Shown: in pieces, positions 1 through 5,199 of the stretch
Position numbering within the stretch: position 1 is the stretch's first letter
Layout: every line of letters starts with the position of its first letter
Source of the DNA: a virus
Taxonomy: Duplodnaviria; Heunggongvirae; Uroviricota; Caudoviricetes
Virus record (IMG/VR): IMGVR_UViG_2534681998_000007
Length of the DNA: 5,859 nucleotides
Reading direction: 5' to 3' (one strand)
Position numbers and translations under genes: made by a program
The notes under the pieces: generated by a model
Told to the model about the DNA's origin: nothing
Databases searched by the model: none
Seen by the model: the letters and a program-made list of their open reading frames with translations, nothing else

Positions 1-7
1 TACCACA

Positions 8-34
8 AATAAAAAAGCCTTCAGGACTGAAGGC
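8..34 (-). terminator. Rho-independent terminator downstream of the small winged-helix gene
   Basis: Plus 17-34 gccttcaggactgaaggc is an inverted repeat (7-bp stem GCCTTCA/TGAAGGC, 4-nt loop). On the minus-strand RNA it is followed by a U-run (plus A-run 11-16). The hairpin overlaps the TGA stop at 21-23. Confidence 0.6.
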
Positions 35-218
35 GTCTGTAACAACCAAACTGATAGTCTGCCAGACCCGCCATAACCAGCTGGGTCAGTATTAACTGGC
101 AGCGTTCGCGTGAAAGGTAAGTATTCTGCGCAATCTCCCCGACTGTCGCCGGGTCGGTAACGCTTAATTCATTAAACACCACTCTGGCGGTTTCTGTCAT
201 ATCCTGCTGTTTTAGCAT
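21..218 (-). CDS. Small (65 aa) putative winged-helix DNA-binding protein, PapI/FaeA-like
   Basis: C-terminal 65 codons of ORF 21..341. The ATG at 218 (MLKQQDMTETARVV...) has a GGGA-rich stretch about 9 nt upstream; the longer N-terminal extension is hydrophobic and has no SD. The pattern GEIAQNTYLSRERCQLILTQLVMAGL resembles the recognition-helix/wing region of small PapI/FaeA-type regulators, assigned from memory. Flanked by terminators on both sides. Confidence 0.45.
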   Translation of the reverse strand: MLKQQDMTETARVVFNELSVTDPATVGEIAQNTYLSRERCQLILTQLVMAGLADYQFGCYRRLQS

Positions 219-341
219 GTCTTTTTCCCTTTTCCGGTTAACGTGACATACCAATAACTCTTGTCGAAAAAGCCAGCAAGTTGAAAGAACGGTATTAATA
301 ACCACCAGCGAATTTATTGCGCTGCTGTATATTACGGACAC

Positions 342-362
342 AAAAAAACCACCTTCCGGTGG
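342..362 (-). terminator. Rho-independent terminator between the ORF6N gene and the small wHTH gene
   Basis: Plus 349-362 ccaccttccggtgg (stem CCACC/GGTGG, loop TTCC) is preceded on plus by aaaaaaa (342-348), so the minus-strand RNA has a hairpin followed by UUUUUUU. About 100 nt downstream of the ORF6N stop. Confidence 0.6.
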
Positions 363-461
363 CTTCCTTGTGCGAAAAAAACTTGCGTTTCGCCTCGCGA
401 TACAGCTTTGCGAAGCATACAGGAATTGAAGCAGTTTATGTGCAAAAATGCAAGAACTTTT

Positions 462-1043
462 TTAAAGCTGCATCAACCTTTCCACCAGTTTATCTCTGCG
501 AACAACAAACCAACCATTGGCTCTCGCCAGTTCCAGCCATGACTCAAGGGAAATAACAATATCATCATCCCGTAACTGAATTGTGGAAACAGTGACACCG
601 CCTCTCTGATAACAGAGAACTCGCGTGTCGTAACTTTTCTGGCATGAAACTGGCGCTGACGGATCCTTTTGTCTGAAATAGCAGTCTTCCAGCTTTTCGA
701 ACACATCCCACGCCTGATCGGTTTCCAGCATTTTGGCATGACGGGCTGCTCCGCGTTCTGTCCAGAGGATGAGGGAGCGGGCTTTCGGGGAAATTTGTAA
801 CCCTCTTAAAGATGGTTGCAAATTTTGTGAGTAGTTTAAAGCTACCCGCAAATTTTTCAGGGCATCGCCAGCCACTTTGAAAAAATGCTTTCCTTCAATA
901 AAGCGCTCAGCATTTCTGGCGTAGTTATTTTGAATGTTCTTAACTCCAGCACCGTACAACTGCGCCAAAAGTTCGGTGGTAATAACAGGAATCTGGTTAT
1001 GGGTGATCGGGGAGAGAGTTTCAACAGAAATTTGAGTTGTCAT
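462..1043 (-). CDS. ORF6N/KilA-N-type domain protein (Roi/antirepressor-like), 193 aa
   Basis: Complete ORF from ATG to TAA, with GAGGG SD about 8 nt upstream of the ATG at 1043. The N-terminal region ELLAQLYGAGVKNIQNNYARNAERFIEGKHFF...LWTERGAARHAKML matches the ORF6N-domain pattern as I recall it (LA.LYG...K.LN..V.RN..RF...F; FTE.G.AML). Confidence 0.7.
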   Translation of the reverse strand: MTTQISVETLSPITHNQIPVITTELLAQLYGAGVKNIQNNYARNAERFIEGKHFFKVAGDALKNLRVALNYSQNLQPSLRGLQISPKARSLILWTERGAARHAKMLETDQAWDVFEKLEDCYFRQKDPSAPVSCQKSYDTRVLCYQRGGVTVSTIQLRDDDIVISLESWLELARANGWFVVRRDKLVERLMQL

Positions 1044-1202
1044 AATGACGCCCTCTGGTGGTTTCTAAACCATCACCACCGTCAGGTTCCTAATCATCGG
1101 GTGGTGAGACGTACAGGGTTAGGAACTACCGGGAAACCAACCGGCGAGCTTTTCAGCTCCCCCATACGCCCCACCATAATTCAGATGTGCGCGTGCATAC
1201 GA

Positions 1203-1228
1203 CAATAAAAAACACGCTCGCGGCGTGT
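1203..1228 (-). terminator. Intrinsic terminator about 60-80 nt downstream of the late promoter (tR'-like)
   Basis: Minus-strand RNA reads ACACGC-CGCGA-GCGTGT followed by UUUUUUAUUG (plus stem 1212-1217/1223-1228, A-run 1203-1211). No T-run on the plus strand, so it is unidirectional. Confidence 0.65.
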
Positions 1229-1290
1229 GTCTGTCGCGGTCTCTATCCGGGGTTCCTAATCCCGACGCCAGATTTTGCTGGCGCGTGAGG

Positions 1291-1320
1291 AATATAGCCC
1301 CGGATAACAGATTGAGTCAA
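1291..1320 (-). promoter_or_regulatory. Sigma70 promoter overlapping the Q-like stop codon (pR'-like late promoter)
   Basis: Minus strand: TTGACT (plus 1315-1320), 18-nt spacer, TATATT (plus 1291-1296). The -35 hexamer contains the TGA stop of the upstream Q-like ORF. Predicted start near plus 1283, giving a roughly 80-nt RNA ending at the 1203-1228 terminator. Confidence 0.55.
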
Positions 1321-1871
1321 CAGACAGTTTTTAAATACCCGGAAGAGAATGCATCACGCATCGGCAGATAGAGCATATATTCAGCAAGATTTAGCCATAC
1401 ATCTACCCGACTGCAGCACGTCCGAAAACACCACTCAGGGTGTGCATCATTTAGCAATTCAGCCATTTTGCGCTTACTCATCCCCCGCCCTTCATATCTT
1501 TGCCGGAGGATACAAATCAATCCTGGGTGTTCTGCCAGCACTTCACTAATCACCCGATCAATGCATAACGCCTCTGCATCAGTACAATGCACCAGCCAGC
1601 TTTTTTGCTTGCCGTTGATCATATCCCGCAAAAAAGCCTCAAGTTCAGGTTTGTCCAGACCTGCTTTTTTCATCCTCCGGAGCGCCTCATTAATTGCCGT
1701 TTTTGTTAGCTTTTTAGAGGTCAGCAACTGGTTAAACATATTTCCCGTCTTACCGCCGCCAATATACGACCAGCGCCCCCACATACGTAGTTTTCCCTGA
1801 ATCCAGACACTTTCCAGCGTGGTGAGACGAAGGTGTTCTCCGCTTTTTCCTGTATTCGTTGGGTAAATCAT
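1317..1871 (-). CDS. Putative late-gene antiterminator (Q-like), 184 aa
   Basis: Start ATG at 1871 (MIYPTNTGK...) is preceded by AAGGAGG at 7-nt spacing; the upstream part of ORF 1317..1991 overlaps the DUF1364 gene in another frame and is not credible. ATGA overlap with the DUF1364 stop. The assignment is mainly positional (last gene before the promoter-plus-terminator module); I do not recognise the Q family from the sequence. Confidence 0.55.
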   Translation of the reverse strand: MIYPTNTGKSGEHLRLTTLESVWIQGKLRMWGRWSYIGGGKTGNMFNQLLTSKKLTKTAINEALRRMKKAGLDKPELEAFLRDMINGKQKSWLVHCTDAEALCIDRVISEVLAEHPGLICILRQRYEGRGMSKRKMAELLNDAHPEWCFRTCCSRVDVWLNLAEYMLYLPMRDAFSSGYLKTVC

Positions 1872-3226: not shown

Positions 3227-3249
3227 AAAAAACCCGCCGAAGCGGGTTT
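3227..3249 (-). terminator. Intrinsic terminator of the hok mRNA
   Basis: Minus-strand RNA: AAACCCGC-UUCG-GCGGGUUU followed by UUUGUUG (plus stem 3233-3237/3242-3246, extendable to 3230-3249). UUCG tetraloop. Located about 70-90 nt after the hok stop. Confidence 0.7.
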
Positions 3250-3251
3250 AG

Positions 3252-3267
3252 TGCGGGTGCGTTGAGG
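3252..3267 (-). promoter_or_regulatory. hok mRNA 3' complementary box (fbi-like), partner of 3630-3645
   Basis: Plus 3252-3267 tgcgggtgcgttgagg is the reverse complement of plus 3630-3645 cctcaagcacccgcag except for one inserted g, so the mRNA 3' end can pair with its 5' end across about 380 nt. Confidence 0.5.
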
Positions 3268-3316
3268 ATGCCTGACACATCAGAGGTGGCGGGAGATTAC
3301 TCCCCCGCCTGGTCTC

Positions 3317-3472
3317 TTACTTCTCAGATTCGTAGTCTACGAAGACAGCGACCTCCGTCTGACCGGTTCGGATTCGCACCTCGCAGAGGTCTTTCCTCGT
3401 TACCAGTGCCGTCACTATGACGGTTAAACAGATGACGATCAGGGCGATTAACATCGCCTTTTGCTGCTTCAT
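3317..3472 (-). CDS. hok: Hok/Gef-family type I toxin (51 aa), HokD/HokC-like
   Basis: MKQQKAMLIALIVICLTVIVTALVTRKDLCEVRIRTGQTEVAVFVDYESEK: single transmembrane helix plus the conserved LVTRKxLCEVRIRTG...EVAVF periplasmic motif of Hok/Gef proteins. ATG at 3472 with GGAG 8 nt upstream. Symbol given at family level only. Confidence 0.85.
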   Translation of the reverse strand: MKQQKAMLIALIVICLTVIVTALVTRKDLCEVRIRTGQTEVAVFVDYESEK

Positions 3473-3529
3473 AGCCTGCTTCTCCTTGCCTTTCGGCACG
3501 TAAGAGGCTAACCTACATGTGTTCAGCAT
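3317..3529 (-). CDS. mok: mok-like leader ORF (70 aa), in-frame N-terminal extension ending at the hok stop
   Basis: ATG at 3529 with GAGG about 9 nt upstream; shares stop and frame with hok, as in chromosomal mokC/hokC as I recall their annotation. Whether it is translated is inferred from locus architecture. Confidence 0.55.
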   Translation of the reverse strand: MLNTCRLASYVPKGKEKQAMKQQKAMLIALIVICLTVIVTALVTRKDLCEVRIRTGQTEVAVFVDYESEK

Positions 3530-3590
3530 GGATTGAGCCTCAGATTAATGTTAAGCGTCTTGCAGGACGCGTAATGTTAACTGGGGCTTT
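3521..3590 (+). ncRNA. sok: Predicted Sok-like antisense RNA (approximate coordinates)
   Basis: By analogy with hok/sok, the antisense RNA is encoded opposite the mok translation-initiation region. Only a weak plus-strand promoter is visible (TTGCCT 3486-3491, 17-nt spacer, TAACCT 3509-3514) and I could not find a clean terminator, so the ends are uncertain. Confidence 0.3.
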
Positions 3591-3629
3591 TCTCTATCTG
3601 CCGTTGGTGTTCATGCCCGAGGCAGATAG

Positions 3630-3645
3630 CCTCAAGCACCCGCAG
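3630..3645 (-). promoter_or_regulatory. hok mRNA 5' complementary box (tac/ucb-like), partner of 3252-3267
   Basis: Sits immediately downstream of the predicted hok promoter. The mRNA 5' sequence ...GGGUGCUUGAGGCUAUCUGCCUC... resembles the 5' end of plasmid R1 hok mRNA as I recall it. Followed by a 9-bp stem (3594-3602/3621-3629). Confidence 0.5.
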
Positions 3646-3766: not shown

Positions 3767-4320
3767 TGATTCACCTCCTGCGGCGGTTCTGGTAGCGACA
3801 TCCAGTGGGTTGCTTGCCTAAGATCATTACCCGGACTAACTGCTATACCTCCGCGCCGGAACGTGCCTCCGAGATAGCGTGCGGAATATATTAATGGCCC
3901 AGCCTCGCTATCGATATTCATCGAAATAAGCACGTTCTGGCTCTTTTCAGGCATTCGCTCAGTACAGCTTATCCAGCCATCCAGAGTTATCGGAGATCTG
4001 GTTGACGTTTCCGAGATTTCCCGAAAATTGTTGGTTGACGAATTCTTATTTTCCCGAAAGTTTCCGGCCTGAAGCATGGCGACGCGGCAGGCGTTCCAGC
4101 CATCAGCATATGTTTTAGTTACACCGTCGAGATGGCAGGTAAGCAAATCCATTTCATCAGGCACTACCATTGCTATCGGCTCTGCTTCCAGTGATGCCAG
4201 CGCGATACGAAACACATTAGCCAGCAGGCTGTCTGAAGACTTGTTATCGTGCGCCGAGTCGCTCAGGAAGCCTGTGATGTATGATTTAATCTCCGCGCGT
4301 TCTCTGGTAATAGTGCTCAT
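3763..4320 (-). CDS. DUF551-like phage protein, 185 aa
   Basis: Complete ORF with AAGGAAA SD about 8 nt upstream of the ATG at 4320. The C-terminal region GWISCTERMPE...VLIS...GGIAVS...THWMSLPEPP matches the DUF551 pattern as I recall it. Confidence 0.65.
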   Translation of the reverse strand: MSTITRERAEIKSYITGFLSDSAHDNKSSDSLLANVFRIALASLEAEPIAMVVPDEMDLLTCHLDGVTKTYADGWNACRVAMLQAGNFRENKNSSTNNFREISETSTRSPITLDGWISCTERMPEKSQNVLISMNIDSEAGPLIYSARYLGGTFRRGGIAVSPGNDLRQATHWMSLPEPPQEVNQ

Positions 4321-4321
4321 A

Positions 4322-4540
4322 TCAGTTTTCCTTATACGGATTAATTTTATTGTGCAGTGCGCTGAATGATTCCCATGTCACATCGGTATATAGCTCAATA
4401 ACTGGTTCAAATGTCCTTCCAATTATCCAGACCAGTAATAGCGGGGATATCGGTATCATCAACACTATAAACAGAATGAAAAACAGAAACTCTGTTGTTC
4501 TGCTCTTTCGTGGGTAATTTTTTTCTAAATAATGTTTCAT
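4322..4540 (-). CDS. Small membrane protein, 72 aa, unknown function
   Basis: Complete ORF with a hydrophobic stretch FLFFILFIVLMIPISPLLLVWIIG (one predicted TM helix). Stop is 1 nt before the DUF551 start (TGAtATG). AGGAGG lies 24 nt upstream of the ATG, separated from it by a GNRA-loop hairpin. Confidence 0.5.
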   Translation of the reverse strand: MKHYLEKNYPRKSRTTEFLFFILFIVLMIPISPLLLVWIIGRTFEPVIELYTDVTWESFSALHNKINPYKEN

Positions 4541-4667
4541 TTCTTACCGCCCTTTCGGGCGGCCTCCTGATGTTCTGAGGGTGCAGGAATCCCTCCGGTT
4601 AAGGATTTAATAAAAATCGTTTCTGATTTAAATCTTCAGTATTTAGTTGTTAGTTGGTTTATCGCCT

Positions 4668-4979
4668 TTATGCTTCAGCCTTATTTCGCAACCAGACACA
4701 AACCGGGCCATCTTCCGTATCATGAATGGAACCAATAAACCAGCCATCGCCCTCTGGTCGTTCCGGTTCCCATGCAGAAATATCAGCATCACACGCATCA
4801 AGGTCAGCACATCCTTCATCTCTGAAGCAGAGGACGTATTGAAGATTATTTTCCTCCATCCAGGCGTTAAACTCTTCCGTTGAAATATATTCCCGACCAT
4901 CACAGAATTTTTCATATTCAGGATGTGTCCAGTAGCCATATCCGTCACGAACTACCGGCATTTCTTTAATTTCACTCAC
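4668..4979 (-). CDS. Highly acidic small protein, 103 aa, unknown function
   Basis: GTG start at 4979 with GGAGG 6 nt upstream (alternative ATG at 4961). Overlaps the upstream gene's stop (GTGAGTGA). By hand count 25 Asp/Glu versus 8 Lys/Arg, with 5 Trp and 5 Cys. Confidence 0.55.
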   Translation of the reverse strand: MSEIKEMPVVRDGYGYWTHPEYEKFCDGREYISTEEFNAWMEENNLQYVLCFRDEGCADLDACDADISAWEPERPEGDGWFIGSIHDTEDGPVCVWLRNKAEA

Positions 4980-5199
4980 TGTTAACCTCCTGCAACGCTA
5001 CACGATACGCCTTCTTTATCCACGCCTTACTGCCATATAATTTCGTCTTCATAATAAACACACCTGCACGACTCGCCGATATCCCCGGACAGGTTAACAG
5101 CACAGCATCCACCACACGGTTATGCTTCCGAAACTCCATTACAGTACTGCTGATAACCACCTGCCCCACCGGGCCGTAATCCTGATACAGGATTTTCAC
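4972..5199 (-). CDS. Small basic protein, 75 aa, unknown function
   Basis: GTG start at 5199 overlapping the upstream TGA (GTGA), preceded by AGGAGGGTG at 5-nt spacing. By hand count 11 Lys/Arg versus 5 Asp/Glu. Confidence 0.5.
   Translation of the reverse strand: MKILYQDYGPVGQVVISSTVMEFRKHNRVVDAVLLTCPGISASRAGVFIMKTKLYGSKAWIKKAYRVALQEVNSE

Follow-up and report, generated by a model that had tools for sequence, protein, structure and literature searches.

A probable immI-type antirepressor cassette between a Q-like gene and a conserved post-Q unit in a lambdoid prophage

Results

Layout of the locus

We studied the region behind a Q-like antiterminator gene in a stretch of 5,859 nucleotides (nt; hereafter the window) from a Caudoviricetes sequence, IMG/VR record IMGVR_UViG_2534681998_000007. 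The minus strand carries every credible gene of the window, and from right to left the order is a hok/sok locus, a DUF1367 gene, a YbcO-type gene, the Q-like gene of the DUF1133 family, a gene for an ORF6N-domain protein and a gene of 65 amino acids (aa). The initial annotation had taken the last two for a pair of cargo genes placed downstream of a late promoter and its terminator. According to our analyses, the region 8-1320 consists of two unrelated units: an antirepressor cassette of the type known from the immI locus of phages P1 and P7 (1320-462), to which the ORF6N gene belongs, and a conserved post-Q unit with the 65-aa gene (Table 1). The protein of the Q-like gene matches its own Pfam family at 354 bits (E=1e-106), passes the cut-off of Pfam Phage_antitermQ (27.5 bits against 26) and is matched by PHROG 753, 'anti-termination protein Q-like'. 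Motif scan and folding place terminator-like intrinsic hairpins at 1228-1207, ~370-342 and 34-10, and the window holds no holin or endolysin gene.

Table 1. Features of the Q-proximal region of the window
Feature	Position	Strand	Details and basis
Q-like antiterminator gene, DUF1133 family, 184 aa	1317..1871	-	Pfam, PHROG
Cassette promoter, PisrK-like	1291..1320	-	-35 TTGACT 1320-1315, 18-nt spacer, -10 TATATT 1296-1291
IsrK-type small RNA	1207..1284	-	two hairpins and intrinsic terminator; Rfam isrK RF01394
b1	1260-1252	-	AUUAGGAAC; loop of IsrK hairpin 2
a1	1243-1238	-	GAGACC; within IsrK
C4-type antisense RNA, counterpart of Gifsy-1 STnc1160	1097..1181	-	Rfam C4 RF01695
Upstream open reading frame (uORF), 27 codons	1094..1177	-	starts at conserved AUG in C4 5' stem; ORF list
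a'	1140-1133	-	UUGGUUUC; C4 hairpin loop
b'	1127-1119	-	AGUUCCUAA; single-stranded in C4
Mini-ORF, 10 codons, after uORF	1097-1065	-	
Operator region of antirepressor mRNA	1051..1094	-	read from sequence
b2	1094-1086	-	AUUAGGAAC
a2	1065-1059	-	GAAACCA; 3 nt ahead of Shine-Dalgarno
Shine-Dalgarno of ORF6N gene	1056-1051	-	AGAGGG; 7 nt ahead of ATG at 1043
Antirepressor-type gene, 193 aa	462..1043	-	N-terminal ORF6N domain, C-terminal half of unknown fold; Pfam, PHROG
Conserved post-Q unit	342..461	-	Q 3'-end relic AAAAAAGTTCTTGCATTTTT, promoter-like hexamers, leader, terminator
Hexamers of post-Q unit	453-414	-	-35-like TTGCAT 453-448, 17-nt spacer, TTCAAT 430-425, -10-like TATGCT 419-414
Leader of post-Q unit	416-391	-	
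GC hairpin and U-run of post-Q unit	~370-342	-	
65-aa winged-helix gene	21..218	-	PHROG 331; RefSeq 'TrmB family transcriptional regulator' or 'hypothetical'
Terminator-like hairpin after 65-aa gene	10..34	-	GCCUUCAG-UCCU-CUGAAGGC and U-run; z=-2.45

RNA leader of the cassette

The cassette begins with a strong sigma-70-like promoter, with 10 of 12 matches in the promoter scan, and the stop codon TGA of the Q-like gene (1317-1319) lies inside its -35 hexamer. Starting 33 nt past that stop codon, the segment 1284-1207 is matched by Rfam isrK at 69.4 bits against a gathering score of 50; the Rfam motif for the a1/b1 target of C4 (c4-a1b1, RF03163) scores 47.8 bits at 1297-1244 against a gathering score of 46.7, and C4 itself 67 bits against 45. 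All three matches are above their gathering scores, and the elements follow one another in the order promoter, IsrK, C4 and ORF6N. For the C4 segment, the predicted fold is the canonical long stem, with a minimum free energy of -42.9 kcal/mol (z=-4.5). Weak Rfam matches to rpsB small RNA (sRNA) at 220-336, to rsmX and to a second isrK-like RNA at 3227-3314 stayed below the gathering scores and were taken as chance. The interval 8-1043, on which the initial annotation was centred, misses the key RNA elements, which lie at 1044-1320.

The b' element of the C4-type RNA is perfectly complementary to both b2 and b1, and a' is perfectly complementary to a2 and pairs with a1 with one G-U. Because b1 and a1 copy the target sites b2 and a2, the IsrK-type RNA is predicted to be a decoy for the C4-type RNA. 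As another candidate for a1, we considered the invariant CAAAAUC loop of hairpin 1; this was rejected, as co-variation puts a1 in the single-stranded stretch after hairpin 2.

The uORF that starts within C4 is the positional equivalent of orf45 of the Salmonella prophage Gifsy-1. Over 75 unique leaders, and setting five in-frame payload fusions aside, its length ranges from 8 to 76 codons and its end is mostly more than 20 nt ahead of the payload ATG; the 27-codon version of the window is probably not a conserved protein. Since the uORF is short, variable and mostly stops well ahead of the payload start, the more general reading is that pairing of a' with a2 blocks the ribosome-binding site directly; coupling as described in Gifsy-1 and P1 is not conserved.

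Co-variation of the recognition elements

We aligned six cassettes: those of the window and of an E. coli locus, the two copies of a Salmonella prophage, and those of VT2-Sakai and pPE4. The motifs TTGAC and GGGGCTATATT of the promoter are unchanged across all six, two of them being nin-region copies with no Q upstream, and the recognition elements change in concert, b1 with b' and b2 and, likewise, a1 with a' and a2. With a promoter-plus-hairpin pattern, ~120 IMG/VR loci were fetched, giving 78 unique leaders. Among these loci we found 30 combinations of a' and b', built of 19 a' types and 12 b' types. The b' element has a perfect complement of 6-8 nt in its own b1 and its own b2 in 29 of the 29 types scored, the runs at b2 being 7-8 nt long, while only 0.6% of non-cognate b' pairs have a run of that length; for a', cognate runs average 6.5-7.2 nt and non-cognate ones 3.3-4.5 nt. 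The a2 sites of many relatives overlap the payload's Shine-Dalgarno or start codon. At the level of sequence comparison, the co-variation shows that the pairings of a' and b' are real. Duplex energies between C4 and target computed with RNAduplex, -31 kcal/mol for cognate against -24 for non-cognate pairs and -24 against -18, ranked the own target best in only 13-17 of the 30 types; shared stem sequences blurred this result, and the counts of perfect complementary runs were therefore used as the measure instead.

A prophage of Salmonella enterica (L007) has a cassette in the nin region and another after Q (4272-5090 and 7570-8378). They differ in a' and b' (TCGGTGAT/AGTGCA in one and TTCCTTTTTC/AAGACC in the other) and encode antirepressors with almost identical C-terminal halves; it looks as though one output were under two orthogonal RNA locks. 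The same prophage encodes, between antirepressor and lysis genes (9128-9892), a 254-aa secreted protein, followed by an insertion sequence (IS) element; judged by eye, the protein resembles a subunit of an ADP-ribosylating (pertussis-like) toxin. The record 'Actinobacillus phage vB_Apl-pPE4' (L004, PP818812.1) is 87% identical in nucleotides to window 389-1400 and encodes a Q-like protein 98% identical to ours, and the DUF1133 protein of a contig binned as 'Candidatus Nanosynbacter' (L011, JARKOR010000130.1) is 91% identical. Neither host label looks trustworthy, the sequences suggesting a lambdoid enterobacterial phage or contamination.

The ORF6N payload

The ORF6N protein is a real gene product by several measures: residues 12-105 match the ORF6N domain (PF10543) at 69.1 bits against a cut-off of 27.8 (E=4e-19), PHROG 2379, 'anti-repressor', is matched over the full length (E=1e-90), and at least 1000 contigs encode the identical protein. 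Through its N-terminal half it also matches a dozen further antirepressor PHROGs, and the C-terminal half matches PHROGs of unknown function only (22471 and 340). Over its whole length, the protein is 58% identical to a Salmonella protein found at the same place after DUF1133, isrK and C4. The payloads of other cassettes have heads of the ORF6N type with different tails, some with the P22 antirepressor C-terminal domain, or of the Bro-N, Rha and AntA types, all of them classical antirepressor heads. On these grounds, the ORF6N protein is very probably the antirepressor payload of the RNA-controlled cassette. A search of PDB sequences with a hidden Markov model (HMM) of the protein's alignment, comprising 14 close homologues, found nothing.

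As a candidate for the target, the near-identical prophage of E. coli ML35 encodes a 139-aa HTH_3 protein as its possible repressor. A self-cleaving peptidase domain gave no Pfam match in this protein, which therefore fits induction via an antirepressor, as described for Gifsy phages.

The post-Q unit and the insertion site

Right behind the ORF6N stop codon starts the conserved post-Q unit. Its 26-nt core is matched exactly, once in the window against 0.00 expected by chance, and its terminator folds at -32 kcal/mol (z=-5.3). In cassette-free loci, the unit follows the pattern TTGnnT, 17 nt, TTCAAT, 5 nt, TAYGCTTCGCAAAGCTGTATCGCGAGGCG, ~25 nt, and GC hairpin with U-run, and it lies directly after the DUF1133 stop in loci L008-L010, L013, L014 and L018 and in E. 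coli AVS0662. The last is a clean empty site, with DUF1133, post-Q unit and 65-aa gene in that order. By this comparison of sequences, the post-Q unit (453-342) and the 65-aa gene are the ancestral contents of the slot. Consequently for the terminators, of which the initial annotation had assigned one to each of the two genes, the hairpins at ~370-342 and 34-10 are both present, but the first belongs to the post-Q unit because this follows Q directly in relatives with no cassette.

Among 102 IMG/VR cassettes with enough flanking sequence, a DUF1133 gene is directly upstream in 21, and in 16 of these the post-Q unit lies behind the payload; it does so in none of the 81 cassettes with no Q upstream (0/81). 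As the unit directly follows Q in cassette-free relatives and the payload in Q-adjacent cassettes, the cassette appears as a mobile module inserted between Q and a probable native late unit. A stretch of ~20 nt identical to the last DUF1133 codons (AAAAAAGTTCTTGCATTTTT) is found behind the ORF6N stop, at 454-461 in the window and at ~5440-5460 in L155; this remnant of the DUF1133 3' end resembles a scar left by the recombination event that brought in the cassette. From its position, conservation and layout, the post-Q unit is probably the native Q-dependent late promoter, short leader RNA and terminator of the DUF1133-Q family.

The slot itself is variable, in keeping with the cargo position that the initial annotation had seen in it. 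Of 27 loci encoding DUF1133 relatives, surveyed with one genome per species, isrK and C4 come right after the Q-like gene in three, two of which are identical (E. coli/Shigella; Salmonella); in the remaining loci, Q is followed by tRNAs, STnc100, cspA, hok/sok or no Rfam feature. A search of sequenced phages for the post-Q unit returned only seven records and no model phage. Behind DUF1133 in Klebsiella, Enterobacter, Buttiauxella, Pseudescherichia and others, we observed a second type of post-Q unit (ATTGTGATAGGCTCGGGACGTTAAAGCGAACTGAGCA, then a terminator; L012, L016, L017, L019-L021, L023 and L025-L027, at ~7550-7680), which suggests, as far as sequences go, at least two promoter/leader classes in the DUF1133-Q family.

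Distribution

Of the 5426 complete E. coli genomes surveyed, 38 contain the entire arrangement of window 1-1400, with 99.6% identity (O145:H28, some O157:H7, and ML35). The cassette leader occurs in 774 genomes, with up to four copies each and O157 and O145 strains included, and the post-Q unit with the 65-aa gene in 2818, numbers that do not agree with the ORF6N and 65-aa genes forming a pair. RefSeq records at the locus name only an 'ORF6N domain-containing protein' and a 'hypothetical protein', and the RNA features are unannotated. In the prophage of E. coli O145 RM9872, three copies of one IS3-family element lie in the AraC gene, the lysozyme gene and the early region (L001 10569-11782 and others); because of these interruptions that prophage copy is probably defective, its cassette being intact.

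The 65-aa gene and the genes beyond

The 65-aa gene is independent of the cassette and the first gene behind the post-Q unit. The protein, mostly 63-65 aa long, is 80-98% identical across Escherichia, Salmonella, Klebsiella, Citrobacter and Buttiauxella, and between two homologues of the same length 17 of the 21 nucleotide differences are at codon position 3; the gene is a real one, in agreement with the initial annotation. A 106-aa reading frame was rejected as an over-extension, its start lying upstream of the conserved start of the 63-65-aa proteins and immediately behind a terminator. Structure prediction was informative for one of the two proteins: the ORF6N model was poor, and AlphaFold2 gave the 65-aa protein a confident winged helix with a predicted local distance difference test (pLDDT) score of 90.5, with helices at 4-16, 26-33 and 37-49 and strands at 53-56 and 59-62 (H1-H2-H3 and a beta-hairpin wing). 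Fold matches in PDB were IclR/MarR heads and methyltransferase winged helices, with TM-scores up to 0.80 to IclR-family heads, and in Pfam the protein reaches TrmB at a sub-threshold score only. The PapI/FaeA-like label given to it earlier had to be dropped: Pfam FaeA gave no match at E<=0.01, the PDB folds are generic and the HMM search of PDB returned no PapI. The protein is probably a small DNA-binding regulator.

We found no convincing separate promoter ahead of the 65-aa gene. Predicted from the layout, it is plausible that Q-dependent read-through would reach the gene en route to the lysis genes, and coupling to Q, which the initial annotation had raised for both genes, is plausible for the 65-aa gene only and not for the ORF6N gene. 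The observation that lysis genes do not occupy the slot was confirmed: in the 99.6%-identical E. coli prophages, they begin ~4 kb past the left edge of the window and are thus not neighbours of the two ORFs, neither of which is a core gene. The stretch between contains, in these closest relatives, genes for an AraC-type regulator, tRNA-Ile, two tRNA-Arg, TerB, DUF3927 and a NanS-p-type esterase, followed by holin, YdfR, lysozyme and Rz.

Homologues of the 65-aa gene stand behind Q also in phiP27, SfV and mEp460. There, ~150 nt behind the homologue and always between Q and the lysis genes, a gene of 350-352 aa is annotated as DNA methyltransferase (phiP27, L032 4001-5407; SfV, L033 3501-4897; mEp460, L034 3501-4907); of these, only SfV orf48 was confirmed as Pfam N6_N4_Mtase. 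In the closest relatives of the window, an AraC-type regulator replaces the methyltransferase gene; in ML35, where L002 7866-9884 corresponds to the stretch left of the window, it is an AraC-family protein of 237 aa matching PHROG 1450 (unknown function). The sRNAs AgvB and STnc100 lie ahead of the NanS-p-type esterase gene in that stretch, which shows the layout of Stx phages minus the toxin genes. On the other side, upstream of the DUF1367, YbcO-type and Q-like genes, the window contains a complete toxin-antitoxin locus of the hok/sok type (3317-3641, minus strand), in which Pfam identifies a Hok/Gef peptide (E=1e-22) and Rfam the antisense RNA sok (113 bits against 59).

Discussion

Our best explanation is that an immI-type antirepressor cassette has been inserted between the Q stop codon and the post-Q unit and that the 65-aa gene is separate from it; we put the probability of this at about 0.8. 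The explanation builds on the RNA elements, their complementarity and co-variation, the payload family and the insertion site as observed here, and borrows translational repression, decoy action and the repressor as target from what has been described for P1 (Citron & Schuster 1990, via PMC8201110) and Gifsy-1 (PMC4825925). In the lysogen, the cassette promoter would be constitutively active and most transcripts would end at the terminator of the 77-nt IsrK-type RNA, while read-through transcripts would carry the C4-type RNA and the mRNA of the ORF6N antirepressor. The a' loop and b' of C4 are expected to pair at a2 and b2, just upstream of the ribosome-binding site of the antirepressor, keeping its translation off in lysogeny. 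If IsrK were to rise relative to C4, b1 and a1 could titrate C4 or open an inhibitory fold, the antirepressor would be translated, and by inactivating the prophage repressor it would bring about induction.

The account that the initial annotation came closest to, in which two paired morons, the ORF6N and the winged-helix gene, lie downstream of pR'-tR' in the manner of Stx, have no role in phage regulation and are expressed through Q or from promoters of their own, draws on the variation of the slot after the DUF1133 Q among relatives, on the moron-like genes in the same stretch of near-identical prophages (AraC-type regulator, TerB and NanS-p esterase) and on the terminator-like hairpin behind each ORF. 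However, a complete C4/IsrK module precedes the ORF6N gene and co-varies with its ribosome-binding region, the protein belongs to antirepressor families, and the gene occurs independently of the 65-aa gene and lies upstream, not downstream, of the conserved unit with promoter-like hexamers and terminator. The RNA anatomy has already largely refuted this account, to which we give very little credence; what had been described as a moron of unknown function is better seen as the payload of a C4/IsrK-controlled antirepressor module with its own promoter. That the ORF6N protein might be some other KilA-N/ORF6N effector, acting in host killing, cell division or anti-phage exclusion and gated by the same RNA switch, would agree with the varied roles of proteins with such heads, the C-terminal half matching only PHROGs of unknown function, and AlphaFold2 (pLDDT 46) and the PDB HMM search giving no usable structure. 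We nevertheless consider it highly unlikely, given the full-length match to an antirepressor PHROG, the full-length homology to a protein in the position of AnrP, the Gifsy-1 antirepressor, and the alternative payloads, which all have antirepressor-type heads and some P22 antirepressor C-terminal domains; moreover, AnrP induced Gifsy-1 and was not toxic alone (PMC4825925).

A different objection concerns the promoter. The initial annotation read 1320-1207 as a Q-dependent late promoter and terminator, and if 1320-1291 really were such a promoter, IsrK would be its 6S-like transcript, Q read-through of its terminator would drive the antirepressor and everything behind it, and 453-342 would be a recombination relic. 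In E. coli and in Salmonella alike, the -35 and the Q stop codon overlap, and a promoter with a short terminated RNA right after Q is the classical pR'-tR' layout; in addition, when IsrK was supplied in trans in Gifsy-1, AntQ levels went up and the read-through transcript increased ~8-fold (PMC4825925). Yet the promoter, with its invariant -35 and -10, IsrK and C4 occur also with no Q upstream, in the 81 of 102 IMG/VR cassettes mentioned above; in VT2-Sakai, the copy is in the nin region and the unrelated Q there has its own downstream region. Furthermore, the post-Q unit is kept behind most Q-adjacent cassettes and is the sole item after Q in empty sites, and this pattern of retention argues for function over decay. 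We thus regard the Q-dependent reading of this promoter as unlikely and take 1320-1207 to be the promoter and gene of an IsrK-type sRNA, found also far from any Q.

Some observations weigh against the cassette explanation itself, beginning with the case for the E. coli element being computational throughout. The 58% identity of the payload is to a Salmonella homologue in the context of AnrP and not to AnrP (SL2578) itself, and its C-terminal, target-binding half has no known fold, the AlphaFold2 model being poor (pLDDT 46, 14 close homologues); the immunity region and repressor of the window's own prophage fall outside the window. A coupling ORF of the icd/orf45 type is not conserved, the one here having 27 codons and ending 51 nt ahead of the ant ATG, and the exact mode of repression may differ from those of both P1 and Gifsy-1. 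As for the post-Q unit, its -10 is weak and the promoter scan did not call it, because TTCAAT has no A at position 2; the pR' role is suggested by position and conservation, and Rfam isrJ, the family of the Gifsy-1 sRNA at the analogous position, does not match the unit.

If the cassette explanation holds, an RNA-controlled switch for induction acts through a gene that is annotated merely as 'ORF6N domain-containing protein', and this has a bearing on the non-SOS induction of lambdoid prophages, Stx phages included, and on the cross-talk of co-resident prophages. It also corrects the probable position of the late promoter in the DUF1133-Q family, and alters predictions of which cargo is expressed with Q (the AraC regulator, tRNAs, the esterase and the toxins of relatives). 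A more speculative thought, which we hold tentatively and think rather doubtful, is that IsrK-type RNAs are programmable decoys for C4-type RNAs, forming a combinatorial, two-element address code, and that placement after Q makes induction self-reinforcing. Such a code would let co-resident prophages keep separate antirepressor switches, or deliberately cross-wire them, and read-through from the early operon into the cassette would add both decoy and antirepressor message. Neither the address code nor the self-reinforcing placement is stated in the portions of the Gifsy-1 paper at hand (PMC4825925).

Comparison with known systems

In phage lambda, the late unit is formed by pR', the 6S RNA and tR'. 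The unit at 453-342 is similar in that, in cassette-free relatives, it comes directly after Q and has promoter-like hexamers, a -10-like repeat and a terminator ~70 nt on, but it shows no sequence similarity to lambda and its -10 is weak. The comparison with Stx-type morons, which benefit the host and are not part of phage regulation, goes the other way for the ORF6N gene, this being antirepressor-type and under RNA control of the immunity style; by position, the conserved post-Q unit, whose status as a late promoter we infer, separates the ORF6N gene upstream of it from the 65-aa gene downstream. Closer are the ant modules in the nin region of Stx phages (for example VT2-Sakai orf34-ant-roi), where the promoter, IsrK, C4 and the N-terminal half of ORF6N are 86-92% identical to the window in nucleotides. 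In VT2-Sakai, however, the cassette comes after a ninE-like gene and upstream of an unrelated Q (Pfam Phage_antitermQ), the payload has the C-terminal domain P22_AR_C, and the a'/b' type differs.

The likeness to Gifsy-1, as described by Hershko-Shalev et al. (2016, PMC4825925), extends over the whole locus: a DUF1133-type Q-like gene (AntQ, at the same position as that of the window), a promoter, a 77-nt IsrK with terminator, a processed C4-like RNA, an ORF6N antirepressor and a second short terminated unit. In that work, anrP translation went up ~140-fold when IsrK was supplied in trans, and processing of the read-through transcript gave STnc1160, an RNA with complementarity to IsrK. Transcription of IsrK, STnc1160 and IsrJ was seen under every condition tested in a lysogen of Gifsy-1, the lytic genes being silent (bioRxiv 10.1101/787010). 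The window differs in its uORF, which has 27 codons against 45 and does not abut the antirepressor start, in its a'/b' specificity type and in the next gene, which is the 65-aa winged-helix gene, the lysis genes being several kb off and not adjacent as in Gifsy-1. An equation of the post-Q unit with IsrJ, and of the 65-aa gene with the 62-aa ORF transcript IsrI (PMC2330248), was rejected, only the positions being analogous: Rfam isrJ had no match at E<=10, and Rfam isrI no match, in the window or the Salmonella locus. A megablast search of the phage collection did not recover Gifsy-1.

The authors of the Gifsy-1 work liken the system to the CI RNA of P4, and a text search of their paper for phage P1 gave no hit (PMC4825925). 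The immI locus of P1 and P7, in which the antirepressor Ant is under the control of c4 antisense RNA (Citron & Schuster 1990; Riedel et al. 1993; both via PMC8201110), shares with the window an antisense RNA that comes from the same transcript as its target and controls an antirepressor, the a' and b' elements with complementary sites both upstream (a1 and b1) and at the downstream translation start region (a2 and b2), and specificity types that differ between relatives, as between P1 and P7. The differences are that the payload head is ORF6N and not P1 Ant, that the prophage is lambdoid and not a plasmid, and that the a1/b1 segment, having its own terminator, forms IsrK, a small RNA in its own right. 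The window also has no icd homologue, the only ORFs ahead of ant being those of 27 and 10 codons. Overall, the design is a known one, that of immI (c4-ant) of phage P1 and isrK-anrP of Gifsy-1, and not a new kind of system; only mildly new are the insertion between Q and its probable late promoter and a two-element RNA code that reassorts.

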